Both the position numbers and the translations under genes were made by a program. The notes under the pieces are model-generated. The model had not been told where the DNA came from. It saw nothing but the letters and a program-made list of their open reading frames with translations, and made no database searches. Positions 7,524-35,671 of a stretch of 62,121 nt of DNA are shown here, one piece after another. Position 1 is the first letter of the stretch. Each line of letters starts with the position of its first letter. Source of the DNA: a virus (lineage: Duplodnaviria > Caudoviricetes); the IMG/VR virus record IMGVR_UViG_3300029787_000032, positions 1-62,121 of that record. One strand, written 5' to 3'.

Positions 7524-7584
7524 AAAAACATAAAATAATTGCTACATAAAAAAAATAAATACCTAAACCAGAAAAATCCATCAT
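7507..7584 (-). CDS. 25-aa hydrophobic peptide (not in ORF track)
   Basis: MMDFSGLGIYFFYVAIILCFYETVR; ATGA overlap with the upstream stop and fills the intergenic gap. Confidence 0.4.
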   Translation of the reverse strand: MMDFSGLGIYFFYVAIILCFYETVR

Positions 7585-20414: not shown

Positions 20415-20426
20415 AAATATAAACGA

Positions 20427-21065
20427 TTACTCTTGCTCTTTCAAGCCGTAAAAGTAATTATCGTCGTCGCCCGCTGTCCACTTACTCTCTGTCTCTACAT
20501 TATACTCAATCGTTGATACCTTAAAGTCAGGTACAGTAAGTTTCGCCGGGCTCAATGACTTGTCATAGAACAAGCATCGATTGTTAGGTTGCGCTGCAAA
20601 ATGTTTATTGTCAAGTAGCAAAATGTTAAATGACTTATGTTCCTCGGGAATTTCTGCATAGCCGGTGTTTAATGTGTTCTTATCAGCATGACAGTTGTCA
20701 ATGGTGAACAAATATTCCCCGGTGTGCCATTTTTTAGAGGGGGATAAATACTTAGCTTTGCATCCTGATATGGATGCTTTTTCAATTACAGCTAAGTCGT
20801 AATCAAAGGCGTCCCACAGCTCTAGTTCTTCAAGTGGTAAGTCTAGATCAGTTGGTTCATCTACAAAAGCGGAAATCGGAAGTTTATCATAAAGCGCACC
20901 GTACTCAGGCAAATAGGTTTCGAAGTAGAGCGCTCGACCTTGTATCGATTTGCACGTGATCCACACTCCTTCTGTGAACTCGCCGTGTCCTTTTTGATGA
21001 TCATAGAGATATTGTTTCTTAACGTGAACCTTAACGGGAGGAAGATTGGCAACGAGAAAGGCCAT
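20427..21065 (-). CDS. Conserved phage protein of unknown function
   Basis: 212 aa globular protein, YLYD..KGHGEF, GALYDKLPISAF, AAQPNNR. Confidence 0.65.
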   Translation of the reverse strand: MAFLVANLPPVKVHVKKQYLYDHQKGHGEFTEGVWITCKSIQGRALYFETYLPEYGALYDKLPISAFVDEPTDLDLPLEELELWDAFDYDLAVIEKASISGCKAKYLSPSKKWHTGEYLFTIDNCHADKNTLNTGYAEIPEEHKSFNILLLDNKHFAAQPNNRCLFYDKSLSPAKLTVPDFKVSTIEYNVETESKWTAGDDDNYFYGLKEQE

Positions 21066-21067
21066 GA

Positions 21068-21394
21068 CTATTTTAAATTTTTATGTTTGATAGGTTTGCT
21101 GCCTCCTGCAGCTCCTACGGCCACCACTCCAGCGCCAGCGCCAGCGGCGATTCCTGCACCTTGTTTAAGATTAGGCTTATTAAACCCTGTTGTGACTTTT
21201 GTTTCTGTTGTTTCTGTTGTTTTCTTTTTAGTTGTTTTCTTTTTAGTTGTTTTCTTTTTAGGTGTTTTCTTTTTAGGTTTTATTTTAGGTGTTTTCTTTT
21301 TAATTTTAATTTTAGGTTTCTTTTTTCCAGTAACTTTATTTACCACTTTTTTCGCAGCTTTTTTAGCTGTATCTAAAATTAATTTTTTTACCAT
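21068..21394 (-). CDS. Lys-rich histone H1-like protein
   Basis: KKKT(P/T) repeats from a 15-bp DNA unit; small hydrophobic Gly/Ala segment; AAGGAG RBS. Confidence 0.7.
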   Translation of the reverse strand: MVKKLILDTAKKAAKKVVNKVTGKKKPKIKIKKKTPKIKPKKKTPKKKTTKKKTTKKKTTETTETKVTTGFNKPNLKQGAGIAAGAGAGVVAVGAAGGSKPIKHKNLK

Positions 21395-21404
21395 TATCGT
21401 CTCC

Positions 21405-21743
21405 TTAATTTTTTAATAGACTTTTTAATATTTTTTTATTTTTTTCTTTAAACTTTAATCCAATTTCTGGTTTTGATCTACCCACTCTTCTATTTGGATT
21501 TCTGTTTTTGTATATTGCCTCTTGAATAGCTTTTGTTTTTTCTTTACCAGACAAAGATTTCTTCTTTGCAATCTGAGCTATTCTCCTTGTCCGTGGTGCG
21601 TTTTCCGGATTTGTTTTAGCGCCGCCACGAAGTTCTATCTTTTCTTTTTTAGGCTTAGTCTTCTTTTTAATCTTAGGCTTCTTTTTTCCAGTAACTTTGT
21701 CCGCTACTTTCTTTGCAACCTTTTTTATAATTTTTTTCTTCAT
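21405..21743 (-). CDS. Lys-rich basic protein
   Basis: Shares KVTGKKKPKIK with the neighbouring gene. Confidence 0.7.
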   Translation of the reverse strand: MKKKIIKKVAKKVADKVTGKKKPKIKKKTKPKKEKIELRGGAKTNPENAPRTRRIAQIAKKKSLSGKEKTKAIQEAIYKNRNPNRRVGRSKPEIGLKFKEKNKKILKSLLKN

Positions 21744-21745
21744 GA

Positions 21746-22216
21746 CTAATCTTTTTTTCTAAATAACGATCCTACTTTTTTTGGTTTCTTAGCTTTGGAC
21801 GTTACAGCTTTACCAGACTTATCACGGACCGCGAAACCTTTTTTGTCACGCACTGCATTTGATTTTGCACCACGTCCTTTAAACTTATCACGAGCATCAG
21901 GTAATGCTTTTGCTTTAACTTTTGCTTTAACTTTTGTCTTTGACTTTGTTCTAGACTCTGTAGGTAATTTACGTTTCGTTGGCTCTGCTTTGGCGTCTTT
22001 GTTACTTTTTAGTTTATTTAAAGTTCCAATAGTGGCTGCACCACCTAGACCTATTCCTAAAGCATATTTCTCTGCTCTGGTCATGTCTTTAACACTTTTA
22101 ATCTTTCTTGTTTTAAAGCTCTTAGGATTATTTAATTTAATTTTAGGTTTCTTTTTTGGTTTAAGAAAATCTTTTCCTTTTTTTATTACCTGTTTAGCAA
22201 TTTCTTTTTTCGCCAT
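21746..22216 (-). CDS. Lys-rich basic protein
   Basis: KKKPKIK; ALGIGLGGAATIG segment; AAGGAG RBS. Confidence 0.7.
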   Translation of the reverse strand: MAKKEIAKQVIKKGKDFLKPKKKPKIKLNNPKSFKTRKIKSVKDMTRAEKYALGIGLGGAATIGTLNKLKSNKDAKAEPTKRKLPTESRTKSKTKVKAKVKAKALPDARDKFKGRGAKSNAVRDKKGFAVRDKSGKAVTSKAKKPKKVGSLFRKKD

Positions 22217-22228
22217 GTTGTTCTCCTT

Positions 22229-23737
22229 TTAATAATAGACCTTTGGCCGTTGGTCGATGGGCGTGTCCTCATAATCTTGTCTCAATTGAATCAAGCCCGA
22301 TTGTCTGAATCTTAACAGAGCCTGTGTGACTGTGTCAACATAATCATCGTTCTCCCCAAATGGAAACGCCGCACACTCTTCTATCACTTCTTCAGCGAAA
22401 CGTCTACCCTCTGGATAATAAATCATGCCCGCTTCAAACATGGGTGATACTGCGTTGACCCTTGTTGTTTTATCGTTACCTCTGGTTGGTGTATAATTTG
22501 TTACGGGTATTCCTGATCGTCTAAGTTCATCGGACAACGGCATACCGCTTGACTTGGCCTCAATCAACACCATCTCAGGTTCCCAATAATTATATTCTTT
22601 GTAGGCAATCTCTTTTAGTTCAGGAAAGTCCCATCGTCCGCGCTGCGCATCCAACAAGATTAACGCTGGCCGGTGTTCGTCAGGACTGAATATACCCCAT
22701 GTTGTAATCGCACTGTAGTCAGCAGTCTCCTTCTTACTGAAGGCTGTATCGTAGCTTTGAATAATATATTGCAGAGCAGGAATATCTTTATCATCCCACG
22801 GCTGCCACCAGTCTCGTTTAAGGATAGCACCTTCTTCTGATGTCGGCTGCTGCATCCACTGTGCGTTCCATTTTGTAATCGCAAGTGATGCCTTAACACT
22901 CTCTAATTCTTCTAGCTTCCAATACTCAGGCCATGTTGGTCCACCACTGTCCATGATTGCCGGGAACTCGACAACCTCCCACTGATCGGCTTTTGGTTCA
23001 ACTTGTGCCTTTATCAATTGTCCTGTCAAATCAATCGTCGACCAACGTGTCATCACAAGAACGATTGCGCCGCCCGGCTGCAAACGTTGACGAGGACCTG
23101 ATGTATACCACTCGTAAGCGTTTTCCATGGCCGTTGTCGATAGTGCGTCTTGCTCTGAATGTGGATCATCAATAATTAATAAATCAGCACCACGACCTGT
23201 AATCGCACCACCGACACCGGCAGCGAAGTATTCGCCACCCGCACTTGTGTCCCAACGACCGGCAGCTTTTGAATCTGCTTGTAACATTGTTTCAGGAAAC
23301 ACTTCCTTATAATCACTTGAGTCAATCAACTGTTTGGTTTTACGACCGAACCGTTGTGAAAGTTCCGCGGTGTGAGACGTTTGTATAATTTTCGTTTGTG
23401 GATTTTTTCCCATAATATATGCAGGGAAAAGGTATGACGCAAACTCAGATTTGGTATGTCTAGGAGGCATATTAACTATAAGCCGCTTTAGGGTCCCATC
23501 TGCAATTTTATTAAATTTTTCTGCAATAATTTTATGGTGTCTACCTTCCACGAACCCCGGCCAAACGGATTTTACAAAAGACATAAAATCTTCTTTTGCA
23601 TTCTGATTTAATTCTATTTTTTTATTTCGTTTATATAATTCAAGGAAACGCTTAACTTCTTTATCGCCTAGTTTTTTTCTTAACTCGGGATTTGTTAAAA
23701 TTTCGTTTAATCTTTCTTCCAAACCAATTTCTGGCAT
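22229..23737 (-). CDS. terL: Terminase large subunit
   Basis: Walker A-like MPPRHTKS, Walker B LLIIDD, VMTRW coupling motif, nuclease SYDTA and DDYVD. Confidence 0.97.
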   Translation of the reverse strand: MPEIGLEERLNEILTNPELRKKLGDKEVKRFLELYKRNKKIELNQNAKEDFMSFVKSVWPGFVEGRHHKIIAEKFNKIADGTLKRLIVNMPPRHTKSEFASYLFPAYIMGKNPQTKIIQTSHTAELSQRFGRKTKQLIDSSDYKEVFPETMLQADSKAAGRWDTSAGGEYFAAGVGGAITGRGADLLIIDDPHSEQDALSTTAMENAYEWYTSGPRQRLQPGGAIVLVMTRWSTIDLTGQLIKAQVEPKADQWEVVEFPAIMDSGGPTWPEYWKLEELESVKASLAITKWNAQWMQQPTSEEGAILKRDWWQPWDDKDIPALQYIIQSYDTAFSKKETADYSAITTWGIFSPDEHRPALILLDAQRGRWDFPELKEIAYKEYNYWEPEMVLIEAKSSGMPLSDELRRSGIPVTNYTPTRGNDKTTRVNAVSPMFEAGMIYYPEGRRFAEEVIEECAAFPFGENDDYVDTVTQALLRFRQSGLIQLRQDYEDTPIDQRPKVYY

Positions 23738-23891
23738 ACTCTATGTCCACATTGTTATAACACAGTATATACAAAACATTCTGCGCAAAAGGGGGTGTTG
23801 ACGAATTTTACAGCAATCAATCTAGTTTGGCAAGAGTTACAGGTACCCTACAGCTTTTCAGGGTGGGTGGGCCCTCGAGCTAGCAGGCGTA

Positions 23892-23937
23892 TACTACATG
23901 TAGTAGGTAGCCCGAAGGCTACCCACTAGATGATGTG
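23892..23937. promoter_or_regulatory. Pair of NrdR-box-like palindromes upstream of terL
   Basis: TACTACATGTAGTA (23892-23905) and CACTAGATGATGTG (23924-23937), 32 bp apart, flanking a GGTAGCC-CGAA-GGCTACC hairpin. Confidence 0.45.
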
Positions 23938-23947
23938 TCAAGAGAAA

Positions 23948-24790
23948 TTAGGCTACTAATTGCATAAAGTCTTGAGACTGTAACAATTTTGTCACATCCA
24001 TTTGACGAGACAAGTACACGTTATTAACGTCTGCGGTCTTGCGTGCCTCGTGATGCGTTGCCCACTCGGTTACACCATTGTAGACGCTGTATAAGTCAAT
24101 CTTATCAATAGAGCCTCGGTTATTACTCTCGACGTATTCCATGATTTGATTTTCTTTTACTTCATTCTTTGCAATGGTATTTTTAAGAGTGTTTCTAATC
24201 GTCTTAAGATCTACCACTGTATTAGCATAAGTTTGAAGTTGTTTATCAAAATGATCTACAGCACTTTTAAACATACTAATTTTATTGTACTCGTTTCCAA
24301 ATACATCGCTGTTAGTGTGTTTTTTAAATGCTTGAACACCAGAGTCTTTATCTAATGCAACCATTCCGTTTAAACATACAAGACGCATTAAGCCAAAACA
24401 TATAGAGGCTTTCCTTGAGCCGTCATAACTATTGATTAAAGTTATTTGAGCTTTTACGGCATCGCCTTCAACTGGGTTAATAACTTCTCTATTAAATGTC
24501 ATAGTTCGAGAATTAACCCCACCATATGCCCATTTGCGGTCGACTATTCCTACGTCCGCTATATTAACACCATTCTCAATTAATCGAGCGTTGATGTTTT
24601 CTAGCATAGTATCAGTTCTATTAATGTGATACTGACCAGCAAAATTGCCTATTCGTTTATTATTAACAAACACGTCTTGCCCTAAGTACTGCATGCCATC
24701 GATTACGGCATTAGTTCTCATTTCAATTTGATCGTCTTGAAATACTGACAAATCATGAATGTTACTATGTTTTACTTTTACGTTTTCCAT
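23948..24790 (-). CDS. DUF932-family protein
   Basis: LINSYDGS...RLVCLNGMV..KKHT and LYSVYNGVTEWATH. Confidence 0.8.
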   Translation of the reverse strand: MENVKVKHSNIHDLSVFQDDQIEMRTNAVIDGMQYLGQDVFVNNKRIGNFAGQYHINRTDTMLENINARLIENGVNIADVGIVDRKWAYGGVNSRTMTFNREVINPVEGDAVKAQITLINSYDGSRKASICFGLMRLVCLNGMVALDKDSGVQAFKKHTNSDVFGNEYNKISMFKSAVDHFDKQLQTYANTVVDLKTIRNTLKNTIAKNEVKENQIMEYVESNNRGSIDKIDLYSVYNGVTEWATHHEARKTADVNNVYLSRQMDVTKLLQSQDFMQLVA

Positions 24791-25144
24791 ATTATTACTT
24801 TCTGAGATCTTTGATCCCTGTTAGATTACGGGCGCATTATTGCTCCCGCTTGTTTGAGATTTAAGAGCTTAGGCTCCGAGCTGGAAACCAGATTGAGTAT
24901 ATAGCTAATCAAAGTCCGATTTTGTAAACTATATAAACCGCCTACCAGACAACGAAAATTATATAGATTTATACTATATAAGCAAGTACTTTATATTAAA
25001 TAATATAGGTCTATATCTTGTATGTATCAGACTGATATACACAAGTTCAATTTTTTTTTTTTTTTGTAATGGTGGGTGGGCCCTAGAGTTGTCAAGCGTA
25101 ATGGTGGGTGGGCCCTAGAGTTGTCAAGCGTTAAAAAATAACGC

Positions 25145-25173
25145 TTGTCATCTTTCGTTATCTACTATAGAAT
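25145..25173 (+). promoter_or_regulatory. Sigma70-type promoter
   Basis: TTGTCA-17 bp-TAGAAT, followed by an AGAAAGGAGG RBS. Confidence 0.7.
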
Positions 25174-25201
25174 ATGGGATATTAGAAAGGAGGTGATTAG
25201 A

Positions 25202-25507
25202 ATGGACAGAGACCCAAGGAAACACTCCTACACAACTACAGTGATTGAGCTGATAGAGTGGGAGCGCTTCGATAACACAGGACACACGCCCAAAGAATGG
25301 GCGCTGGTTCGAATGATGGAAGCGGCTAAAATTGAGTTAGCACGCATTGAAGATGCTAAAGAAAACGGATACGAAATCGGTTTAACTAAAAAGTATATTG
25401 ATGCGTTCAAAAAACTCAACAACGATCTGTTGGACAAGTACCATGAGTTGACGGGCGGAGACGCACACAGTTACTACATGGAAACAGATCCTAAGTACCA
25501 AGACTGA
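25202..25507 (+). CDS. Hypothetical early protein
   Basis: True start MDRDPRK follows a strong RBS; has its own promoter and terminator. Confidence 0.75.
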   Translation: MDRDPRKHSYTTTVIELIEWERFDNTGHTPKEWALVRMMEAAKIELARIEDAKENGYEIGLTKKYIDAFKKLNNDLLDKYHELTGGDAHSYYMETDPKYQD

Positions 25508-25516
25508 ACCGCGCGC

Positions 25517-25546
25517 GGGGGAGAGATAAGACTCTCCCCCTTTTTA
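25517..25546 (+). terminator. Intrinsic terminator
   Basis: GGGGGAGAG-ataaga-CTCTCCCCC-TTTTT. Confidence 0.85.
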
Positions 25547-25743
25547 TTTATTTTTTAGGGAGGGTGGGCCCGTTGGCCGTCAAGCGTCAACCGTGGTTCG
25601 TTGTCCACGGTTGACGGTCGTTCTCTAACGGGAAACCTTTTCTTTGACGAGGTGTCGTTTAATTTCGACGCCTCTCTGTTTCGCTTTCCGTTCTCCTTCT
25701 TTCACTTTCTGTTGGACAAGGGACAACAGTTCTTTGAAAGTAA

Positions 25744-26235
25744 TCATGATGCTTCCCTGTCTAAGTAGTCTACGTATGAAAGACAGACCACATCTCTTAT
25801 CGGACATACCATAGATTCTTTCCGTGTCGAACGTACCGAGTGGAATAGTCCGTCAGTCCAGTCTGAGGTGTTGCCGTCAGATGAGATCTTTTCCATTGGA
25901 TGAGCAGATCGATTTTGTTGAGGTGGGGAGTCTGTTAGGTTGTATAACGCACAAAGGACAGCAACTACATATTTATCATATGGCTTACGTGCTGTCTTGC
26001 AAAAGTCGAACGCCTCTCCTTTCTTTTTAGTGATGAGGAATGTTTCGTGGCTGTCTTCACCTAGTCCATTGAACCAGACACGATCGCCGTTTACCTCTGG
26101 CTTTCCGCCGTCACCGAACCCGTCAGATAATATACCTTCGTTATCTGCTATGATTAAGTTTGTTAGTCGAACAAATTCTTCCCATTCAGCGTCTGTAAAG
26201 TCTCTGTTCTGTCTCCAGTAATGAGTGTAGCCCAT
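25744..26235 (-). CDS. Conserved early protein (MGYTHYW / FCKT.RKPYD family)
   Basis: AGGAGG RBS; characteristic motifs. Confidence 0.7.
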   Translation of the reverse strand: MGYTHYWRQNRDFTDAEWEEFVRLTNLIIADNEGILSDGFGDGGKPEVNGDRVWFNGLGEDSHETFLITKKKGEAFDFCKTARKPYDKYVVAVLCALYNLTDSPPQQNRSAHPMEKISSDGNTSDWTDGLFHSVRSTRKESMVCPIRDVVCLSYVDYLDREAS

Positions 26236-26693
26236 TATTTATCCTCCTTTTTTTGTTTTTCAATAATATCATTATTATATACGCCAACCCTTTCTAATAC
26301 TTCAGTCCAAGTATCGCAAAAATGTTCCTCGTAATATGGATCAGCTTCATCACCACTATCATAATGGCCATAAACAAAAAATACCCCTGACTCATTAATG
26401 TCTAGTATGATATCTTTATGCTTGTTAATCATTTTTTTAGCCATTGCTTTCATATCAAATTCATAGTCAATTACTTCGCTATTTACTTTATATGGTCTTT
26501 GTAATTCTTGAATATCTTCTATTTTCATTTCAAGTGCAGTAATTTGTTGTTGCAACTTTGAAATTCTAAAATCATATTCTTGAACTTTTTGATCTGATTT
26601 TTCTTTAATGCTTAAAAGAAAAGAATCGTGACTATAAAACTCATCTCTTTTAACATCTACTGATTTTGCTGTGTTAAGTATTCTATGTAACAT
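26235..26693 (-). CDS. Hypothetical early protein with coiled coil
   Basis: 152 aa; AAGGA RBS; TTGACC..TATGTT promoter-like sequence upstream. Confidence 0.65.
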   Translation of the reverse strand: MLHRILNTAKSVDVKRDEFYSHDSFLLSIKEKSDQKVQEYDFRISKLQQQITALEMKIEDIQELQRPYKVNSEVIDYEFDMKAMAKKMINKHKDIILDINESGVFFVYGHYDSGDEADPYYEEHFCDTWTEVLERVGVYNNDIIEKQKKEDK

Positions 26694-26810
26694 TATTTTT
26701 CCTTTGTTAGATTTAATGTAAACATAGCATAATCAAGGATAAGGTCAACAACTATTTTCTTTTTGTTATCTACTGTGGCATTTATGCAACACCCTCGTCA
26801 GACAACGTAA

Positions 26811-26826
26811 TGTTTCACGTGAAACA
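26811..26826. promoter_or_regulatory. parS: parS centromere-like site
   Basis: Exact palindrome TGTTTCACGTGAAACA, the bacterial chromosomal parS consensus; intergenic. Confidence 0.75.
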
Positions 26827-26935
26827 ATTTAATAGGGCGGGTGGGCCCATGAACCGTCAAGCGTAGGGAGGGTGGGCCCTTGAAGCGTCAAGCGTTGTCC
26901 ACGGTCAATGACCGTGGACAACGGATCGTGGTTAA

Positions 26936-27205
26936 CTAAACCTCGTAGACACCCAACGTACCCGGGTCGTACCATTCGGCGTACAGGCCATGCTTGTCCA
27001 AGATAGTGTTGATCTTTGGATTAACTCCAAAGTCATCTAAGCCCAACTCAGCTTCGTTGAAACCAATCGCCCAGTAGTCTGCCCAGTTCTCTCCAGTCTC
27101 AGCATTAATGCGGAAACGGTCTGGGTTGTCGTTCATGTCTCCTTGGATAACAGGAACACCGATTGCTTTTAATTCGTTGTATGCTTTTTCGTATTGTTTT
27201 TTCAT
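26936..27205 (-). CDS. Hypothetical early protein
   Basis: 89 aa, AAGGA RBS, WADYW..FGVNP..L.KHGLYAEW motif. Confidence 0.7.
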   Translation of the reverse strand: MKKQYEKAYNELKAIGVPVIQGDMNDNPDRFRINAETGENWADYWAIGFNEAELGLDDFGVNPKINTILDKHGLYAEWYDPGTLGVYEV

Positions 27206-27490
27206 ATCATTTTTCCTTGTTTGTTAGAGTTACCTTAGCCTAGCAGATTGTGGGATAGATACAACCCCTTTTTTCACTTTCTTTCACTTTTATTATCTAC
27301 TGTGACATTTATGCCACACTGTATAACGAGCTGTTATGTCAGACAACGTAGTTTCACTTGGGGAGGGAGGGCCCGTGAGCCGTCATGCGTGATTCAGGGA
27401 GGGTGGGCCCGTGAACCGTCAAGCGTGGACAACGAACCACGGACAAGGGTGGGTGGGCCCGTGAACCGTCAGGCGTAGATTAGAATGATT

Positions 27491-27880
27491 CTAAACTAGA
27501 AGATCTTGGAGCATGTCCCATTGGACAAGGTCATGCGTATCGTGGACAACGAACAACGGCTCGTGGTTCGTTAATTTTACTCGTGGTTCGCTAGCTAGTG
27601 TACCTTGAAAAAGTTTTACGGCTGACTGACAACGGCTCGTTGTCATAATAAATTTGGAGCCGTAATTGGTCAGATGAAAGGCGACTTGGTGGGCTGAAAA
27701 CACTATCGTATCGGAGGCATTTGTTACTTTAAGTTCCACTGTAAAAAAATGGCTATTGGCTTGGCTTCCAATAAGGTCTGGGAAGCCTCGATTGACAGAA
27801 TTTTCTATTCTATTCCAACGAATTCTGGGGGTACGTTGTTTAATGAGTTTCCATAATTTTGTTTCGTTTTTACCACTCAT
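27491..27880 (-). CDS. PD-(D/E)XK nuclease, VRR-NUC/Holliday junction resolvase-like
   Basis: E..LW, RIEN....GFPDL, VELK, SAHQVAFH. Confidence 0.8.
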   Translation of the reverse strand: MSGKNETKLWKLIKQRTPRIRWNRIENSVNRGFPDLIGSQANSHFFTVELKVTNASDTIVFSAHQVAFHLTNYGSKFIMTTSRCQSAVKLFQGTLASEPRVKLTNHEPLFVVHDTHDLVQWDMLQDLLV

Positions 27881-27921
27881 TATTCAACGGAACATTCCTT
27901 TATTACATTTGATTATTTAGC

Positions 27922-28351
27922 GAGAGAGAGCATACTCAGTAGCCACAGGTTTAAACTGATTTTGGATATCCTCGGCTGTACACTCCCTCTCCATTAAATG
28001 CTTGAGGCTACTCGTCAGCAGTCTAACCTTGCACTTAAATATTTTAGCGAGAGAGTTGCAAGTTGCGGTACCTTAGATTGCCTCTCATATGTATCTTACA
28101 ACTCTCTCTTTACGGCCTTGCGACCTTGCACCTTGGACTACCCTTTCGTTTGTTATATAGACACTTATTAATGTGTCAGCATTCCAAGGCTTGGTATCTG
28201 GTGATTGTTCTGTTTCATTTGTGTTCTGTTCAATCAACAACATAGGTATTAAGATGTACGCCTATGTAGAACCCAGAATATTGTATCGAGAGTTGCAAGT
28301 TGCGATGTACTCATGTTTATCTTACAACTCTCTCTTTTCCTCTAACAAGGA
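27922..28351 (-). ncRNA. Candidate structured RNA cluster (three related hairpins)
   Basis: Stems at 28288-28332, 28049-28108 and 27922-27991; G-U pairs work only on the minus strand; promoter immediately upstream. Confidence 0.55.
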
Positions 28352-28357
28352 ATATTT

Positions 28358-28386
28358 TTTATAGTCTTTGTATCCCATAATGTCAA
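28358..28386 (-). promoter_or_regulatory. Sigma70-type promoter
   Basis: TTGACA-17 bp-TATAAA on the minus strand. Confidence 0.7.
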
Positions 28387-29895
28387 GTACTTTTATATAT
28401 TTTTTTAAAAATAATTAGTCCTTGTTGTCTGGTGTACTCTGGTTCGTTGTATGCTCTATGCTCTCTGTTTGTCCAACGGAGCCATCTATCAAAATTTTCA
28501 TCTTTGGACTGTTCGTTGTTGTATTCAAACTTAAGATCACTTTCCATTATACAACGTCCTCTCCATCTACTAGCACCAACGTAGCTGTTTGATAGCTCTT
28601 GTAGTCTAACCCACATAGTTCGCCATCTATCGAAAGTCCACCTTCTTTAACCAAAATTTCTCTTGCCTTCTCTTCGCTGTCTGCTGTAATTGTGTACCTA
28701 AACCAAGCGGGTACTTCAAACTCGTATGTCATACTCCCCACCCCCAAAAAATAATAGCTCGTACAGGGAAGTAAACGGCTCCCAAAATAACTACAATGTA
28801 CAACCAACCCATATTGCTTATATAACGAGTATATTTTTTCATTCAGCTTTCCTTTTCCATTGATTAAAAAACGTTTTATGAACCCAATTTAAAACTAATT
28901 GTTTGTCTTCCTTTGTTTTAAATTCAAGGTCATTAAGTATTGGCATTATTTTATTTGCGTGTTCATTCATTTTGCCAAAGTCTTTTCTAATATTAATATA
29001 TCTATTATACATTTATTGTACTGTCTCCCCTTGTCTAAGTTCAAAACCAATTATCTTTTCTACCTCAAACAATGACCACATGCTAGATACTACAATGTCA
29101 TCATGTAAGTCCGATAGTACCTCATCTACTGTGACTAGTCCGTGTCTAAGGTGAGTAATTTTCTGATTGATACGTTCCTCAGATAAATCAAACATCTTTT
29201 GTTTGTACATGCTCATTGATCGTACCCCTCTATAATATGATTATCAATATCTCTATAAATGTTAGCGATTGTTTCGTCAGACAACACAACACTATTGAAC
29301 ACTTTGGATACATCACCATCAAATATCACTTCAACTTTGATCTTGCTTAGTTCGTATCTTGGCTCTGCATTATGCTTGTCATCTAACGGAATTGTGTCGC
29401 CATTGTAGTCTACTTCATACATATTACTCATCATACCCCCCATCATATTCGCATTCAAAGTCTTCTTCTCCGTATTGACGGAAATCGTCTTCCTTGATTG
29501 TCGTAAGCTCTTCAACATTAATTTCATTTGACTCACAACGAACCCCTTGAAACAATATATTCTCTCCATCACCAAAAGATTTATCAAACCTGTTATCAAA
29601 CATAATATCAGTAGCTTCGTCTTCACTATCTGCCATAACTCTATAATGCTCGACAAGGTATTCGCCTACTTTTATGTCATAGATTTTTTTACCTATGTGT
29701 TCTTTTTTTATATCTAATTTACTCATTGTTCTTCCTTTCTATAATTCTAATATAAAGATCAACGTCTTCTTTCTTGGCTTCTTGTTCGTCATTAAAACAG
29801 TCAATATTAAATCTGTCTAAAATTTGTTCAAACTGTTCTAACATCTCGTAGTGTCCTTCTTCAGCAGAATAAACTTGTATATTGAGTTCTTTCAT
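28383..29895 (-). other. Run of tightly coupled small early ORFs
   Basis: Includes MESDLKFE.. (ends 28383), MTYEFEVP.. (ends 28547), a TM peptide MKKYTRY.., MYNRYINI.., 29013..29216, MSNMYEV.. (ends 29213), 29424..29726 and 29719..29895. Stops and starts overlap. Confidence 0.6.
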
Positions 29896-29898
29896 TAT

Positions 29899-30267
29899 CT
29901 AACACTCCGCCTCAAACACACATTGACTATTTTCTTCTACACATTTTAAAATTTTTTCACCTAATTCTAATCGTGCATACCACTCGAGCATTGTCCCGTC
30001 TGTTAGATTGATCTCTTCTTCTAACATCTTGTCGTTATAGCCGTCATTCTTTTCAAAAAAGTCGTCCAGTTTTTTCTTCCAATCCCCTAATCTTTCTTTG
30101 CACTCGTCAATGCCTCTTTTTATGTCATCTAAGTTATCTTCATCAAAATAGTATTCTAGTAAACTAGGTGTCGTACCTTCAACACCAAAAAAATCTGCGT
30201 CATTACTATCTTGAACAGCAACCCAAAATTTGCCTTCTATGTCACCATGAAAATATCTACCCATCAT
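29899..30267 (-). CDS. Conserved early protein (MGRY..GDIEGKFW family)
   Basis: 122 aa, acidic, AAAGGA RBS; TTGACT..TATGAT promoter upstream. Confidence 0.7.
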   Translation of the reverse strand: MMGRYFHGDIEGKFWVAVQDSNDADFFGVEGTTPSLLEYYFDEDNLDDIKRGIDECKERLGDWKKKLDDFFEKNDGYNDKMLEEEINLTDGTMLEWYARLELGEKILKCVEENSQCVFEAEC

Positions 30268-30353
30268 TCTTCCTTTCTAATAAATTATTTTGAATCATAA
30301 TCTGATTTGTTTCCCATAGTCAATAGCATTTTATAATTATTTTATTTTTTTTA

Positions 30354-30384
30354 TTGACTTTTTCCACAACCACTAGATATAGTA
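30354..30384 (+). promoter_or_regulatory. terS promoter overlapped by an NrdR-like box
   Basis: TTGACT-18 bp-TATAGT; CACTAGATATAGTA at 30371-30384. Confidence 0.55.
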
Positions 30385-30407
30385 GCTTCAAGGAGAACAG
30401 ATACTAG

Positions 30408-30938
30408 ATGTCGAGAAGAAAGCACCTTACACCCCAACAACTAAAATTCGTTAATCTTTTGGTATACAACGAAGGACGTTTAACGGCTACAGAATGTGCT
30501 GTCCAAAGCGGTTACGCTAAAGAACGAGCAAGGTCGTCAGCTAGTGAACTACAGAATTCAAATTACTATCCTCTCGTTGTACAAGAAATCAACAAGCTCA
30601 GAAAAGAAGTGAACGAGAAATATCGAGCATCTCTGGAAACCCACATGCGCGATTTAGCGGACATCAAGCGTAGAGCACTAGAAGAGAACTCATTTTCGGC
30701 GGCTGTACAAGCAGAAGTTGCAAGAGGCAAAGCGGCAGGACTGTACCACGAAACTAAGACCATCATGCATGGAAAGATAGATCAGCTATCGGCTGAAGAA
30801 GTTCGCAAAGAACTAGAGTCAATAGCCAACCAAATCAATCCAAAGATTGTTGAAGGCAAGGCAGAAGAAATTATAAACAAGAGAAAGATCAAGCGTAATG
30901 AAAAAGAAAAGCAGACCACAAGTAGTGAAGACGCCTGA
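30408..30938 (+). CDS. terS: Terminase small subunit
   Basis: LTPQQLKFV..ATECAVQSGY HTH, SAAVQAEVARGKAAGLY, KIDQLS.EEV. Confidence 0.8.
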   Translation: MSRRKHLTPQQLKFVNLLVYNEGRLTATECAVQSGYAKERARSSASELQNSNYYPLVVQEINKLRKEVNEKYRASLETHMRDLADIKRRALEENSFSAAVQAEVARGKAAGLYHETKTIMHGKIDQLSAEEVRKELESIANQINPKIVEGKAEEIINKRKIKRNEKEKQTTSSEDA

Positions 30939-31290
30939 AGGCGAACCAGAACTAGTCAAAGTAGGCTATAGAGACATACGAATTGAATGGGTGGCGCCCG
31001 ATTTTAGGACAGATGAGCTCACAGACTGCTATGGGCAGTACAAATCTAGAGAAGGACTTATTCAAATACAACATAATCTGTGCGGACAAGAGAAATCTAA
31101 CACTTTATTACACGAAGTAATGCACGCGTGCGCTTACGGATCCGGCCTCAATCAAGCTAACGGCCCTCTCAAGGAGGAGGACGCTGAAGAACTTACAATA
31201 AATCAGCTCAGCAACTATCTAATGGGTGTCTTCAGAGACAACCCTTGGTTCCTTGACTATCTAAAGAAGAACATAGAAAAAGACCTCTAA
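30898..31290 (+). CDS. HEXXH zinc metallopeptidase-like protein
   Basis: YG....GLIQI...NTLLHEVMH...EE. Confidence 0.75.
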   Translation: MKKKSRPQVVKTPEGEPELVKVGYRDIRIEWVAPDFRTDELTDCYGQYKSREGLIQIQHNLCGQEKSNTLLHEVMHACAYGSGLNQANGPLKEEDAEELTINQLSNYLMGVFRDNPWFLDYLKKNIEKDL

Positions 31291-31528
31291 GAGTATTTCT
31301 GCCAGAAATATTTTTAAACAAAATAAAGTTCCGCCCACACGACTCTACAGTAAATTACCTGTAATATGCTAAAATTACCTGTAAATTACCCTAAAATTAC
31401 TTTAATAAACTGTATTAACCTATTGATATATATACATTACGTATAAAAAATTACCAAATTACCTGTAAAATTATTTTTTTTCTCGGTCAGAATATTTTCT
31501 GGCAAAAAAACTCTATAGAGGTAATTTT
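31283..31528. repeat. AT-rich iteron region flanked by inverted repeats (candidate origin)
   Basis: About 7 AAATTAC(CTGTAA) copies; TGCCAGAAATATT / AATATTTTCTGGCA and ACCTCTAAGAG / CTCTATAGAGGT arms. Confidence 0.6.
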
Positions 31529-31732
31529 TGTCCCTTGGCCGTAGACCGTGAGCCGTATACCGTAGACAATGAACCCCCATCTATTCATCAAGACCATAAT
31601 AATACCATATATCGCTGACTTGATCGCGCAGTATCTGTATCTCAGATGAGCACCAGTTCACATCAAGGTATCGATATTGATTGATCGACATAGATGTCAA
31701 CAGCACCATGATCGCAAATAAAAATAATGTTT

Positions 31733-32014
31733 TCATTTTTTTGCTTTTGGTCTCCCCTTTGGTTTACCAGTATATCTGCTTTTTAGGTGTCCGTGAACCT
31801 TTAAATACGCTGTACTGCACCGGTCAGAACAATACTTTTTTTGCCTTTGCCATCTGTTGATTGCGAACTCTTCTTCACAAACAACACAAACTTTGGTGCC
31901 TATAATTCCTACCGCATCACTCATAGGCTTTGCCCCATGACTTTTGTATGTACTTAATAAACTCCTCATCAATGTCTTTGTTGTAGAACGCCTTCCACAA
32001 TCGTCTGATCTCAT
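31733..32014 (-). CDS. Small Zn-finger-like protein (start probably internal, MSDAVG)
   Basis: CVVCEEEF...KYCSDRC, basic tail. Confidence 0.55.
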   Translation of the reverse strand: MRSDDCGRRSTTKTLMRSLLSTYKSHGAKPMSDAVGIIGTKVCVVCEEEFAINRWQRQKKYCSDRCSTAYLKVHGHLKSRYTGKPKGRPKAKK

Positions 32015-32038
32015 TTGCTGTAAACATAATATTCCTTT

Positions 32039-32230
32039 CTATGGATAATAAGCCATGACCAATTCTTTATCTGCCACGGCCTTGTCTAAATAAGCTACTG
32101 CATCACGAACTTTTTTGCTGACTCCTTTTCCATGGTGATCATCAACAAAATGACACAATGTATTTATTGCCTCACACAATTCGTGTTGTGTGATGTAGTT
32201 GTCTCTATCAAAATCTGCGCTTGTTAGCAT
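32039..32230 (-). CDS. Hypothetical protein
   Basis: 63 aa, AAAGGA RBS. Confidence 0.55.
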   Translation of the reverse strand: MLTSADFDRDNYITQHELCEAINTLCHFVDDHHGKGVSKKVRDAVAYLDKAVADKELVMAYYP

Positions 32231-32258
32231 AAGTATTCCTTTCTGTCTTTCCCCTTAT

Positions 32259-32378
32259 TTAAAGTTCATCAAACCAATAATCATCTTGAAGCAACTCTTT
32301 CTCCAGTTGTTGCATTAAATTTAGAAGTTCTATGATTTTATCTTTACTTATATTGTTTAAATCTATTTCTATTGTCAT
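32259..32378 (-). CDS. 39-aa peptide (not in ORF track)
   Basis: AAGGAG RBS, MTIEIDLNNISKDKIIELL..; TTGACA-17-TATATA promoter upstream near 32470-32496. Confidence 0.55.
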   Translation of the reverse strand: MTIEIDLNNISKDKIIELLNLMQQLEKELLQDDYWFDEL

Positions 32379-32645
32379 GTTACTCCTTCTTTGCGCTGTC
32401 TCGTTTTGGGTTTTCATGTCAAGCATTGCTACACTACTAAAGCCAAAACGAGAACAATTAATGTACTATATAATGCTAGTTCTTATATCTGTCAAGTATT
32501 TTTTATCGTTGTCTTCCTTGACCACGATATGGTTTAAAAGAACGGCGCTTGCTCTTGTTCATTGTGCTTGTGATGGGGTTGCGGCCTTGACTTGTGCCCT
32601 TGAACGTTGGTTCGTGGTGCGTTTCTCGTTGAAATTTTTTAGCCA

Positions 32646-32864
32646 CTAGATAATACCACTTTTGCGCGCTTCCATAATCTTTTGTTCGGCAAGTGCGGCC
32701 TCTTGATCGCGTTGAATTTTTTTGCGCTTCTCTAATAAAGCATACAGATGCCCACCCCAGATAGTCTTCATACTGACGGGCGTTGTAAGGTCATCATACT
32801 TTTGTTGCAGTCTTGTTATCCTGCGGTTCAATGTGATTTGATCTTTAAGTCTTTTGTTAATCAT
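32646..32864 (-). CDS. Hypothetical protein
   Basis: 72 aa, GGAG RBS, coupled to neighbours. Confidence 0.55.
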   Translation of the reverse strand: MINKRLKDQITLNRRITRLQQKYDDLTTPVSMKTIWGGHLYALLEKRKKIQRDQEAALAEQKIMEARKSGII

Positions 32865-33039
32865 TGGTTCTCCCTTCTACGTTGACATGATATACTAAAA
32901 CCTCTGCTGTACACTTAGGGCACGATAAGTTTGTGACGACCATGTGCTGTTCTTCTTCGTTGTCTTCCCACTCGGTGTCGTGATCACCACCCCAAATCAA
33001 TTCGTGTCCACAGCTCCAACATTTCATTTGTCTATACAC
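32857..33039 (-). CDS. Zinc-ribbon protein
   Basis: CWSCGHELIWGGDHD...NLSCPKC. Confidence 0.7.
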   Translation of the reverse strand: MYRQMKCWSCGHELIWGGDHDTEWEDNEEEQHMVVTNLSCPKCTAEVLVYHVNVEGRTND

Positions 33040-33263
33040 AATCCGTTATCTAAAACTATTTTTTCATCTGTTTCAATCCAGACTCTTGCACCACAAGATA
33101 AAGGCTTGTCCTTAGCGTAAACCACTTTAGATGGCCCTTGTATGTCCACTTCATGAGCATAATTATTTGACTTGTACGTTTTGACTGTCAACACAGGCTC
33201 GTTAGTGTTGTTCTTTTTATTGCTTCTTATCTTATGCATATTTACATGTATTATTTTTTTCAT
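33024..33263 (-). CDS. Conserved phage protein
   Basis: IHVN.H.I..N, GPSKVVY..DKPLSCGARVWIET. Confidence 0.7.
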   Translation of the reverse strand: MKKIIHVNMHKIRSNKKNNTNEPVLTVKTYKSNNYAHEVDIQGPSKVVYAKDKPLSCGARVWIETDEKIVLDNGLCIDK

Positions 33264-33483
33264 CTATAGTTCTTGTATTACAATTATTAAACGATACTTT
33301 TCTTTTGCACCTATAATAGTGTTCGGTACAAGATCAATCTTTTTTATGTCAAATGATGTGTTAGGCCGTGAACCAAATCCCATGGGTACAGCAAGAGATA
33401 CTCTGGCGTTCGCACCTTCCGGGCTTGTACAAAACTTTTCTAATACAGACACTAGTTCTTTTGTTGTCCAACGTACGCTCATA
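33264..33483 (-). CDS. Hypothetical protein
   Basis: Likely start MSVRWTT after GAAAGGA; start coordinate approximate. Confidence 0.5.
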
Positions 33484-34222
33484 AATCTTCCTTTCGTTCC
33501 TCTGATTGCAACCAAAATACCAATAGATAGCGATCACCGTCTTCGACTGGTAAACCCCTGTGTAAGTGAGTAAAACTAGGAAAAATAAGACCATGTCCGT
33601 TAGGCAACGGCGGTACAACTCCTCGTCCAAAGAACTCTGTACCTCCACCTTTGTAATCTCCGGTGTTCAACGGCACCACCATACTGATGTCAGCGCTCGT
33701 GTCATGGTGCCATGCTGTCTGACTGATGTCTCGTGGGTTGTAGTTCGCGACTTGAATGCCACCGCCCACAACTTCTCTGTTCCACAACGTTTGAAAGACC
33801 ACATTGATTTTAGAGATAACAAGTTTCATTAACGACAGATACAGGTCTCTCGCATCATTTTGTAAAACAAACTCATTGATCTGATGTTGTTTTAGTTCGC
33901 TGTAGTTTGGTTCAAATGTAAATTGTTTTTCCATGTTCCGCACTTCGTCCATGAATACAGAGCAAAACTCTTCTGAAAAGATAGGCAAGGTAAACACCTC
34001 ATTCAACGGTTCGTTGATCGTGTTTCGTAGTTTGGTAGGCTCGGGATCTTCAAGGCCTTCTTCGTTCTCGAAACGTTGCATAACCGGTAGCGCACCATTG
34101 ATCAAAGGCAATGTCTTATCATCGATGAACCATTCAGAGGCCATCAACAACAACGCGTTCTTGTAGATGTACGGTCGCCCAAAGTTTTTTTGAAATCGTG
34201 GTAGTTCAGTTATGTTATACAT
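33479..34222 (-). CDS. 2OG-Fe(II) dioxygenase (PLOD/lysyl-hydroxylase-like domain)
   Basis: P.FSEEFC, WHHD (HxD), YKGGGTEF, HLHRGLPV..GDRYLLV. Confidence 0.88.
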   Translation of the reverse strand: MYNITELPRFQKNFGRPYIYKNALLLMASEWFIDDKTLPLINGALPVMQRFENEEGLEDPEPTKLRNTINEPLNEVFTLPIFSEEFCSVFMDEVRNMEKQFTFEPNYSELKQHQINEFVLQNDARDLYLSLMKLVISKINVVFQTLWNREVVGGGIQVANYNPRDISQTAWHHDTSADISMVVPLNTGDYKGGGTEFFGRGVVPPLPNGHGLIFPSFTHLHRGLPVEDGDRYLLVFWLQSEERKEDL

Positions 34223-34916
34223 CGTGTTCGTTGTAATATTTTTCGCATCGCTTTAGCCATTTGTATTTGTAGTCATCTAACCGTTGGCCGTTGATCGTGA
34301 ACATTTGTAGATCCATACCACGCGACGCCATGAGAACCACACCGGCTTTCATTTCTGTACCATACAGTGCATCGTGCGCCATGCAGTACGCCGCCAACTG
34401 TGTAAAGTAATCATCAATCCACTCTTCTTTCTTCGGTTTGTTTGTCTGCTTAAAATCAATAACTGCGGGCTGTTCACGCCAAACTCCTACACAGTCTGCT
34501 GTGCCACCATAGAACGTGGGGTAGTAAAGAGGAACTTCTGTGCCCCAGTATTCGTCCATTGATGGTAAAGCATTCTTAATAATTGTTTGTGCCATTCTCT
34601 TGGCTATAATACCAATATTACTTTTATCATCATAACCAACACCCTTTATATGACACTCGAGAAATTTGTGCATAGCGGTACCAACAGAAGCCGCTTGATG
34701 CATAACTGCATCTGCTTCTGCGTCGCCAACTTTGTCTCTCCATCGTTGAAGACCCGCCTTATCTTTCTCATCTTTTGTTGCAGATATAACCGTTGTGACC
34801 GAAGGAAGAAGTTTGTTCTCTCCCTCGTAATATCGTTTTCCGTTCACCTTCTTACGTCGAACATCTTTGTAGTCATAACGTTCGGTGATTAATGACTCAA
34901 GATTTTGAATGGCCAT
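34215..34916 (-). CDS. PD-(D/E)XK exonuclease (MGME1/Cas4-like)
   Basis: LPSVTTVI, GTAMH, E, GTAD, IDFK, YFTQLAAY. Confidence 0.88.
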   Translation of the reverse strand: MAIQNLESLITERYDYKDVRRKKVNGKRYYEGENKLLPSVTTVISATKDEKDKAGLQRWRDKVGDAEADAVMHQAASVGTAMHKFLECHIKGVGYDDKSNIGIIAKRMAQTIIKNALPSMDEYWGTEVPLYYPTFYGGTADCVGVWREQPAVIDFKQTNKPKKEEWIDDYFTQLAAYCMAHDALYGTEMKAGVVLMASRGMDLQMFTINGQRLDDYKYKWLKRCEKYYNEHDV

Positions 34917-35079
34917 TCAATCCTAGTTGCTTTGCTTTCTGTGTTGCTAGGTGCTCAATGGTCTTAGCCAAAGATACTTTCATTCCTAACTCAGTTGATA
35001 ACGCAGCAGATACTGCCTTTAGTTCTTTGTATGTCTTTTTATTCACAGAGACAGAACTGTACTTAAGAATGTCGGGCAT
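34897..35079 (-). CDS. Ribbon-helix-helix-like DNA-binding protein
   Basis: YSSVSVNKKTYKELK...SLAKTIEHL. Confidence 0.55.
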   Translation of the reverse strand: MPDILKYSSVSVNKKTYKELKAVSAALSTELGMKVSLAKTIEHLATQKAKQLGLNGHSKS

Positions 35080-35109
35080 TCTTGTTCCTTTCTTTATGTA
35101 TTTCGTCCT

Positions 35110-35298
35110 TTATCTAACGTTAGAGAACTTTTTAGGACCTGTTGCTTGCTCTAAACAAACTTTTAGCTCCTTTAATTGCTCAGTCAAAGAACGATTTTGT
35201 AGTCGTAAGTGTTCGTTCTCCATAACCAAAGCGTTTTTCTCTGTCCAGTTGTTTAAATTGGACGCTAAATTATCGTTATAATCCATGGAAACCTCCAT
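35110..35298 (-). CDS. Small coiled-coil protein (start probably MDYN after GGAGG)
   Basis: Heptad pattern. Confidence 0.5.
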   Translation of the reverse strand: MEVSMDYNDNLASNLNNWTEKNALVMENEHLRLQNRSLTEQLKELKVCLEQATGPKKFSNVR

Positions 35299-35304
35299 AT
35301 TTTA

Positions 35305-35334
35305 TTGTAATCTACTACTAGATGTAGTAGATTA
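35305..35334 (+). promoter_or_regulatory. Promoter with an 11-bp inverted repeat / NrdR-like box
   Basis: TTGTAA-17 bp-TAGATT; TAATCTACTAC-tagat-GTAGTAGATTA. Confidence 0.6.
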
Positions 35335-35365
35335 TGGAAAATTGTCAACAAAAAAAGGAAGAATT

Positions 35366-35671
35366 ATGAGATCAGAATTAGCAGACCGTAGGCCGTGTTA
35401 CGCATTCACTATACAAGACAACAATGGAACACCATACAGACTCACAGTTTCGTTTGAAAATGATGTTGTTAAAGAGGTTTGGATCAATGGTGGAGGCAAA
35501 GCCGGGACAGAACGGTTTGATATATTAACTGAGTTTGGAAGATTAGTTTCAGTTGCATTGCAAAACGGTACACCTCTTGAAGAATTAAAATCGTGCGCAA
35601 CGTTTCATACTGACGGTAGGCCGTCGACAATTGTTGGTGAAGTATTTAATCAGTTAGAAAAACTTAGTTAA
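35366..35671 (+). CDS. Stand-alone TSCPD domain (class II RNR C-terminal, NrdJb-like)
   Basis: R..LADRR...Y.LTVSF...KEVWI..GGKAGT......GRLVSVALQNGTPLEEL...S.IV; start after AAGGA. Confidence 0.7.
   Translation: MRSELADRRPCYAFTIQDNNGTPYRLTVSFENDVVKEVWINGGGKAGTERFDILTEFGRLVSVALQNGTPLEELKSCATFHTDGRPSTIVGEVFNQLEKLS

Follow-up and report, generated by a model that had tools for sequence, protein, structure and literature searches.

What occupies the roughly 500 nt without a conserved open reading frame (ORF) that separate the genes for a 77-aa and a 129-aa protein in an uncultivated phage? The stretch of DNA analysed, hereafter the window, is a complete IMG/VR virus record of 62,121 b (IMGVR_UViG_3300029787_000032) with genes almost all on the minus strand; its proteins include a large terminase, portal, family-A DNA polymerase, primase and helicases, and its terminase is 60-65% identical to the terminases of the Pelagibacter phages HTVC027P and HTVC023P. 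The original prediction described the gap as a promoter-driven array of three related RNA hairpins, A, B and C. These hairpins prove to be the second arms of three abutting units, each built from two hairpins and fixed joints, which belong to a previously undescribed family of RNA modules. The reading favoured here, with a probability of about 0.45 and so slightly short of even odds, is that the region encodes several modular small RNAs, clustered together, which would be released by processing, be stable and share a recognition core; any function for them can only be proposed.

Architecture of the array

Hairpins A (28332-28288), B (28108-28049) and C (27991-27922) are all present on the minus strand with the sequences described for them, and the mismatches in their stems are G-U on that strand (one in A, one in B, three in C), as had been claimed. 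The pattern GAGAGTTGTAAG-N15-45-CTTGCAACTCTC, which describes A and B, occurs twice in the window compared with 0.00 expected occurrences (100 shuffles), and the only two copies of CTCTCGCTAAA are those at the 3′ feet of B and C. In folding tests on 27881-28400, the minus strand scored z = -4.56 (none of 100 shuffles as good) and the plus strand z = -1.56. The region is indeed poor in ORFs, the longest being no more than 63 aa. The hairpin family is therefore real, but only half of each unit had been described: an upstream hairpin (P1), the conserved single-stranded joints and the true boundaries had been missed.

The units, whose P2 arms are hairpins A, B and C, together span 28355-27916 on the minus strand. 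From 5′ to 3′ each unit consists of (UAAA)AUAUU, a P1 hairpin, AUA, a long P2 hairpin with a GAGAG/CUCUC base, and G(CUAAA). P1 mostly opens with C-G, the bridge AUA is sometimes AAA, ACA or AAUA, and the final G is usually GCUAAA, so that the joint between abutting units reads CUCUC-GCUAAA-AUAUUC. Alignment of 28 distinct units gives the consensus nAnATATTc-P1-ggAtA-GAGAGag...ctCTCTc-GcTAaA, with P1 ranging from a 3-bp hairpin to a domain of ~130 nt and P2 from ~35 to 90 nt; some classes of arm carry conserved unpaired motifs, such as GARGUCG in one P2 class. Unit coordinates derive from units first recognised by eye, our own automatic parsers having been far too permissive (hundreds of false units).

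Unit 1 (28355-28288) comprises an AUAUU box (28355-28351), a P1 of four base pairs, CCUU/GAGG (28350-28339), a junction (28338-28333) and hairpin A as P2; GAUACA and then the next AUAUU box follow. Unit 2 (28281-28043) comprises an AUAUU box (28281-28277), a branched P1, CUGG...CCAG (28276-28198), AUA (28197-28195), an inserted domain of 86 nt (28194-28109), hairpin B as P2 and the tail GCUAAA (28048-28043), and folds with z = -3.2. Unit 3 (28042-27916) comprises an AUAUU box (28042-28038), a 43-nt P1, UAAGUGC...GCAUUUA (28037-27995), the junction AUG (27994-27992), hairpin C as P2, with an outer stem of 14 pairs including the three G-U and an inner AGCC/GGCU stem, and the tail GCUAAA (27921-27916). 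All three lie on the minus strand.

Direct reading confirms the sigma-70-like promoter with which the region begins (28386-28358, minus strand): TTGACA (28386-28381), a 17-nt spacer and TATAAA (28363-28358). A promoter scanner missed this site because it requires T at the last position of the -10 hexamer. The TGA stop codon of the 77-aa ORF falls within the -35 hexamer, and a transcript starting ~7 nt past the -10 would begin in the AUAUU box of unit 1. The promoter is identical in two related loci, L102 and L103, and in L011 and L012 TTGACA-17-TATAAT stands at the same relative place, followed by ATAAATATTGG; thus a sigma-70 consensus precedes the first unit in two sub-lineages (the window with L102 and L103, and L011 with L012), placed in both so that transcription would begin in the AUAUU box. 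In L006 the -10 element is not conserved. A full promoter precedes no unit but the first: internal promoters at the unit joints were considered and rejected, no -35 being found 16-18 nt upstream of the -10-like TAAAAT of the internal joints. A scan for intrinsic terminators, defined as a G+C-rich hairpin with an immediate U tract, found none in 27000-29500; the sequences that follow the P2 feet are GCUAAAAUAUU, GAUACAAUAUU or GCUAAAUAAUC.

Selection for base-pairing

A covariance model, R1, was built from 18 units (alignment A1) with the structure supplied by hand. Searched against 36 sources (270,683 b), it gave 29 matches at E <= 0.0051, of which 18 are its own seeds and 11 are not, and all 29 are on the strand of the flanking genes; the weaker matches include three judged spurious (E 0.78-0.9). 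In the window, R1 matches unit 1, itself a seed, at 28282-28358 (55.4 bits, E 1.4e-7) and unit 2 at 28043-28159 (E 7.5e-4); it gave no match to unit 3, whose assignment rests on the joints that it shares with the others and on the parse. A second search with R1 covered another 23 sources (199,333 b), among them the whole genome of phage HTVC106P and 20 more distant loci of the 129-aa gene family, and found two matches, both in locus L120, and none in the other 22.

In the alignment, 84.3% of cells in paired columns form pairs compared with 68.0% in shuffles (0 of 500 reach it), double changes occur at 15 of the 17 pairs, and the covariation score is 0.370 compared with 0.134, all counts that lean towards structure because the alignment was fitted to the model. 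Sliding the partner by one to three columns lowers pairing to 38-60%. Compensation can also be read by eye: in the distal stem of hairpin A, AUG/CAU is replaced by GUG/CAC in L003 and L004; at the foot of P2, GAGAACCA/UGGUUCUC is replaced by CAGAACCA/UGGUUCUG; and in P1, CCGUA/UACGG, CUGUA/UGCAG and CGGUG/CACCG stand in for one another.

The sense strand is predicted to be more stable than the antisense strand in 26 of the 28 distinct units, by 5.4 kcal/mol on average (Wilcoxon p = 9e-6), and among 448 cells G-U occurs 40 times and A-C 22 times. For these strand and G-U counts, three matches (L090, L107 and L117) were left out as chance matches to coding sequence without convincing stems, and with the window's plus-strand match also dropped, 3 of 31 distinct rows were removed. 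Both the strand bias and the excess of G-U fit an RNA made from the gene-sense strand. Covariation and strand bias together bear out the earlier proposal that selection maintains pairing within a family of related hairpins on the minus (gene-sense) strand.

Two peptide-level explanations of the same sequence were discarded. A 52-aa minus-strand ORF (28243-28085) is truncated after ~20 codons in another phage's copy of that arm, and the AUGs in the hairpin loops, to which attention had been drawn, are not conserved, that of hairpin A being GUG in the relatives L003 and L004 and hence not a conserved start codon.

Distribution among phages

Loci were gathered by a pattern scan for hairpin A, by a search with the downstream protein and by patterns based on the joints. 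Units were found in 12 IMG/VR contigs and in 20 of 22 metagenome loci. They belong to two phage lineages: the relatives of the window, which are of HTVC023P type, and a 38.7-kb type resembling HTVC106P, represented by the contig G001, the portal of which is 52% identical to that of HTVC106P and which has few proteins in common with the window. No R1 match was found in the whole HTVC106P genome. Two joint-based patterns had no match in the genomes of 185,579 prokaryote species (one genome per species), and the idea that the units are a cellular or host repeat was dropped for want of copies there; within the searches made, the units are confined to phage-like sequence.

In the relatives of the window, arrays of one to three units lie between the 77-aa and 129-aa genes (three in the window, two each in L006, L009 and L102, one each in L007 and L011/L012). 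Units are absent from L008 and L010, and from the corresponding locus of the cultured or named phages HTVC027P, 023Pt_psg01 and DSL-LC04. In the G001 type, the stop codon of the upstream gene is followed by one to six units, which end against a convergent gene for a small protein with an HExxH motif; G001 itself has six units, with two more at the other end of the contig, L004 has two, and L120/L121 have three and a second site, which in L120 is another convergent junction with remnants of mosaic units. Within the window every motif and R1 match falls in 28036-28358, that is, at one locus in 62 kb, which argues against a general role in punctuating transcripts.

The units resemble no catalogued RNA. 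With Rfam 15, the whole window gave no match at the gathering score; positions 27700-28600 gave at E <= 10 only four matches to eukaryotic families at chance level (13-17 bits against gathering scores of 60-75); and L093, L119, L120, L143 and L132 gave none at E <= 0.1. Y RNA, which had been offered as a comparison, the known self-cleaving ribozymes, IMES, Gut-1 and riboswitches are all in Rfam 15, and none matched. No tRNA or transfer-messenger RNA gene was found in the window by ARAGORN. An array or solitary repeat of the CRISPR (clustered regularly interspaced short palindromic repeats) type was rejected, since the conserved parts are joints of 5-12 nt at the feet of helices, at a base-paired spacing of 65-240 nt. 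Neither 27400-28700 (distant mode) nor 20000-36000 (near mode) matched any of 50,697 phage records at the nucleotide level. Literature searches found no published description of the units, although supplementary tables of intergenic motifs could hold one.

Turnover and exchange of units

The arrays change far faster than their surroundings. In L102 and L006, the flanks of 400 nt are 93-98.5% identical to those of the window, whereas the array itself, 441 nt long, aligns over no more than its first 40 or 81 nt. L007 differs from its sister L008 by exactly one unit, flanked by a short TAGA repeat. Arms are swapped across the two lineages: P1 of window unit 2 (79-82 nt) is 98.8% identical to P1 of G001 unit 4, where it is directly followed by AUA and a different P2, and P2 of window unit 1 and a P2 of L004 have 95.7% identity.

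Traces of such exchange are visible elsewhere. At 6750-6880 of L120 lies a degenerate unit in which the interior of one P2 type runs into the 3′ half of a second, a scar left by recombination between units. At the two ends of contig G001 (L093 1-200 and L094 3300-3674) the HExxH gene is repeated with alternative versions of the array, likely the result of population heterogeneity that broke the assembly at a hypervariable locus.

Comparison of the ORFs of the window with those of G001 (blastp) found in common a lysis cassette, pieces of tail fibre, a few tiny ORFs and one HExxH protein. The lysis-type cassette (window 6905-8637, minus strand; G001 30327-34676) includes an amidase_2 protein of 140 aa, a coiled-coil protein of 131 aa and a protein of 86 aa. 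Its protein identities of 72-91% suggest that it may have been transferred recently between the lineages, and its occurrence in both at that identity fits co-infection of the same host.

Representation in RNA libraries

Part of the stretch occurs in 20 of the 24 public marine runs listed (14 studies; six RNA libraries; two of the rows possibly the source of this DNA), and the contigs of four RNA libraries were compared with the array. One library (X15) yielded a 349-nt contig identical to 27992-28340, and another from the same study (X16) a 272-nt contig on 28011-28279, both wholly within the array; neither the lack of cover over the flanking genes in these two libraries nor the contig ends at 28279 and 28340 can be taken to mark RNA ends. 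In a library from another study (X17), a contig on 27913-28111 continues into the small ORF seen in L006 and hence represents a variant array. The fourth library (X18) covers only the flanks of a relative.

Motif X, nested in unit 2

The 86-nt domain inserted between AUA and P2 of unit 2 contains a second, separate and previously undescribed RNA motif, here called Motif X (28189-28131, minus strand), in which a closing stem, CCUUGGA/UCCAAGG, surrounds a core of ~45 nt, GCUGACACAUUAAUAAGUGUCUAUAUAACAAACGAAAGGGUAG. The core is near-invariant (GCUGRCACAUUAAUAAGUGUCUAURUAACAAACGAAAGGGU). A small hairpin, GGUC-GCAA-GGCC, follows the motif at 28125-28114.

A 24-nt pattern from the core was found in 30 viral contigs (L123-L152), and a further copy lies at 3514-3554 of L043. 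When 20 copies were aligned with RNAalifold, the 24 searched columns being invariant by construction, 11 of 19 pairs kept pairing through double changes, all of them in the closing stem. Motif X often stands 10-25 nt before a ribosome-binding site and start codon, or right after a promoter-like site. It has no match in Rfam. An RNA-library contig with a depth of 2570 contains a match to 41 nt of the motif, between different flanks. Motif X may be a cis-regulator, a ribozyme or an abundant small RNA.

Interpretation of the arrays

If the arrays are clusters of processed small RNAs, transcription in the window would proceed on the minus strand from the TTGACA-17-TATAAA promoter, and in the other phages by read-through from the gene directly upstream. 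The A/U-rich leaders between units may be cut by a host endonuclease of the RNase E type, which would release stable RNAs of ~70-240 nt. Enzymes of this type cut at sites such as RN|WUU, to which AAU|AUUC in the leader would conform. The invariant joints may then serve as a common docking platform for one protein, while the exchangeable arms may carry roles specific to each unit, most likely in conflict between phage and host or between phages. A dedicated RNA locus is favoured over generic punctuation because the window has a single locus in 62 kb, because as many as six units occur without an intervening gene, and because arms contain conserved unpaired motifs.

Several observations weigh against this interpretation. 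Every array read starts ~0-90 nt past a same-strand stop codon, where cis-acting 3′-end elements would also sit, and the arrays of the HTVC106P-like phages are at convergent gene junctions. The strand bias and the tolerance of G-T are equally compatible with single-stranded DNA hairpins of the same strand, the -10-like TAAAAT of the internal joints leaves room for a reading at the DNA level, and the covariation counts have the lean noted above. The RNA-library evidence consists of assembled contigs, which are blind to strand, ends and level and may stem from carried-over DNA, and one of these contigs crosses two unit joints uncut. A search for a partner protein by co-occurrence found none, the only non-structural, non-lysis protein present in both lineages being the HExxH peptidase-like protein. 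The longest word that the array has in common with its own genome is 12 nt (12-15 nt in 30 shuffles); this chance-level match speaks against a guide role within the phage, and the suggestion that the units are guide RNAs directed at their own genome was rejected.

The location of the arrays after stop codons, at several convergent junctions and in some cases before a ribosome-binding site and small ORF, is what one would expect if the units were cis-acting elements of messages, that is, RNase III or RNase E sites in intercistronic or 3′ untranslated regions, barriers to 3′ exonucleases, or attenuators that uncouple the flanking messages, in the manner of the RNase III signals in T7 early RNA or of PeSL stem-loops. 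The P2 stems of 12-15 bp are plausible substrates for a double-strand-specific RNase, and a study of T4-type phages showed that stem-loops known as PeSLs (promoter-early stem-loops) terminate transcription (PMC2839356). Such elements would be expected at many gene boundaries rather than at a single locus in 62 kb, and would hardly be stacked up to six at a time without intervening genes; the scan of 27000-29500 revealed no canonical intrinsic terminator, and internal loops conserved within a class of arms (GARGUCG) suggest more than a generic barrier. A purely cis-acting role is rated as unlikely, though it is the main competitor to the small-RNA reading. The behaviour of the arrays raises another alternative, that the units are cassettes for recombination or mobility at the DNA level, similar to PeSLs or to repetitive extragenic palindromic (REP) sequences and bacterial interspersed mosaic elements (BIMEs), partly selfish, with the joints as crossover points or as sites of single-stranded DNA hairpins. 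Genomes that are nearly identical have had their whole arrays replaced, and the joints are where arms recombine; the mosaic remnants at 6750-6880 of L120, the one-unit difference with TAGA repeat between L007 and L008 and the alternative arrays at the ends of G001 are all of this kind, and PeSLs mediate such shuffling according to two papers (PMC2839356, PMC4122927). Recombination at joints, however, needs no pair of covarying hairpins, and the compensatory changes show selection on pairing; a Y1/HUH transposase was found in none of four records (G000, G001, G003 and G005), the 185,579 species genomes hold no copies, and shuffling may be a consequence of the repeats and not their function. As the reason why arrays are kept, this explanation is fairly improbable, even though it may well describe how they evolve.

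Two further explanations assign an activity to the RNA itself. Each unit could be a new small self-cleaving ribozyme, cut in or beside the leader, with the joints as its catalytic core: ~20 invariant nucleotides are concentrated at the helix junctions while the distal stems vary freely, and the units are clustered in tandem in phage genomes. Self-cleaving ribozymes are known to cluster in phage-like regions. No resemblance to an Rfam ribozyme was found at E <= 10 in the window region or at E <= 0.1 in the five other loci, however, no tertiary pairing between the joints could be written, and the RNA-library contig that spans two joints is uncut, so that a ribozyme is considered quite improbable. 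The suggestion made from the sequence alone that the array mimics an antitoxin may be put in terms of ToxI, the antitoxin RNA of type III toxin-antitoxin systems, or a phage pseudo-ToxI that neutralises an endoribonuclease toxin of the host. ToxN cuts at AAAU, and expansion of a pseudo-ToxI occurs in a phage; likewise, the array is a tandem phage RNA of variable copy number with an AAAU-containing joint, possibly cut at an A-rich site. Its units, in contrast, are not identical and measure 65-240 nt, two to six times the length of the near-identical tandem repeats of ~36 nt (range ~34-45 nt) that typify such antitoxins and lie upstream of a ToxN/AbiQ-type endoribonuclease gene, and no gene similar to ToxN or AbiQ is adjacent, the neighbours among the proteins scanned (Pfam and PHROGs) being the PD-(D/E)XK fold, the HExxH protein and small ORFs. 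Antitoxin mimicry is the least probable of the explanations considered and can be given very little weight.

A bolder form of the small-RNA reading is possible, though we regard it as doubtful: the units may be a new class of phage RNA cassettes with an invariant junction core, either read by a protein or catalytic, and two swappable cargo arms, in fast-turning arrays that are traded between unrelated phages and serve as decoys or sponges in conflict, Motif X, very abundant in one metatranscriptome, being one such cargo.

Comparison with known systems

Phage T7 early mRNA is processed at RNase III signals, related hairpins that stand singly after stop codons at about ten gene boundaries and leave a protective 3′ hairpin. 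The units resemble these signals in being related hairpins after stop codons with local sequence in common, and differ from them in occupying only one or two loci per genome, in occurring up to six at a time, and in having a second hairpin and conserved single-stranded joints. REP sequences and BIMEs are near-identical copies spread through an enterobacterial genome that also encodes RAYT, a Y1 transposase. Like them, the units form hairpin arrays with fixed linkers and variable unit number at operon ends and convergent junctions; unlike them, the units have stems that differ and covary, and no cellular copies. A search for the RAYT/Y1 transposase domain (PF01797) was negative in the four phage records, while control genomes scored. 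The tRNA arrays and small stable RNAs of T4 phage are likewise structured RNAs arranged head to tail, with invariant junction nucleotides, covarying stems, short A/U-rich spacers and a content that varies between relatives, whereas each unit described here has two hairpins, no cloverleaf and no CCA-like end.

The closest described system is that of the PeSLs of T4-type phages, which consist of a -35/-10 promoter and one stem-loop, each flanking an ORF (PMC2839356, PMC4122927). The two systems are broadly alike in being composite intergenic stem-loop motifs in hyperplastic regions, at sites of indels and replacement, next to small accessory ORFs and linked to a sigma-70-type promoter. In the arrays described here, a full promoter stands only before the first unit (window, L102, L103 and L011/L012), and each unit has two covarying hairpins with fixed joints, is arranged head to tail with others without ORFs, and is common to unrelated lineages.

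Neighbouring genes

The gene downstream of the array (27880-27491, minus strand) encodes a 129-aa protein that was predicted to be a PD-(D/E)XK nuclease, and this fold is upheld by an alignment of 15 sequences, in which E26, P34-D35 and E49-L50-K51 (the E-x-K of the motif) are invariant, and by structural comparison. An AlphaFold (AF2) model with a mean confidence (pLDDT) of 79.1 matched, by Foldseek, the nuclease domain of SPARDA (E 1.5e-4), Hjc (1ob9, E 1.2e-3) and RecU (1zp7, E 3.1e-3) with TMq of 0.4-0.57; the protein is thus similar to Holliday junction resolvases. By sequence it matches phrog_2165 (3e-10) and nothing in Pfam or the Protein Data Bank (PDB). The homologous gene corresponds to no annotated feature in the GenBank records of HTVC027P (L086, 16216-16491) and 023Pt_psg01 (L087, 15021-15287), and in DSL-LC04 (L088) it lies under a coding sequence named "terminase small subunit".

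The proximity of this gene to the array had suggested a functional link, which did not hold up. The gene family was confirmed in 597 of 599 candidate stretches of viral contigs, mostly without units, and the R1 scan of 20 more distant loci of the family found units in none. Since the gene is common without units, and units occur in other gene contexts without the gene, no functional coupling is indicated.

The gene upstream (28616-28383, minus strand), the stop codon of which adjoins the promoter and array, encodes a 77-aa protein of unassigned function. It is kept in the relatives, and the C-termini of its homologues were found upstream of the arrays, or of the corresponding site, in L006, L009, L010, L011 and L102. 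Between the array and the 129-aa gene, in 27881-27915 (minus strand), the last 21 nt (AAGGAATGTTCCGTTGAATAA) correspond to the 3′ end of an ORF of 46 codons. This ORF is present in L006 (compared stretch 3845-4000) and L102 and overlaps the next start codon as TAATG; the remainder of it has been lost in the window.

The small HExxH protein (window 30898-31290, plus strand; G001 38067-38420) has weak Pfam matches of M78/SprT-like type, and the homologues are 47% identical. In all HTVC106P-like loci read, its gene is the convergent gene that adjoins the RNA arrays. In the window it overlaps a gene resembling that of the terminase small subunit (30408-30938); as it lies 2.5 kb from the array and on the other strand, no link to the array is claimed. 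Elsewhere in the window, a 1465-aa ORF (45127-49524, minus strand) is without a PHROGs family at E <= 1e-5.

Implications for pelagiphage biology

To our knowledge, almost nothing is known about non-coding RNA in the phages of SAR11, and the words intergenic, hairpin and noncoding were not found in a word search of two pelagiphage papers. Phages related to HTVC023P are described as the most abundant group of pelagiphages (PMC12753301). The RNA family described here has good structural support and is represented in RNA libraries; because its arrays turn over completely between genomes that are nearly identical, and its arms cross lineages, it provides a concrete handle on what these viruses fight over. 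It also illustrates that arrays of the "hairpin plus fixed linker" kind can be made up of two-arm modules that differ from one another and harbour further RNA motifs. Should the joints be a signal for processing or protein binding, they would define a novel activity in RNA handling, in a host whose regulatory repertoire is very small, and if the units are indeed cassettes, the arrays would be an RNA-level counterpart of accessory-gene islands in phages of the ocean's most abundant bacteria.

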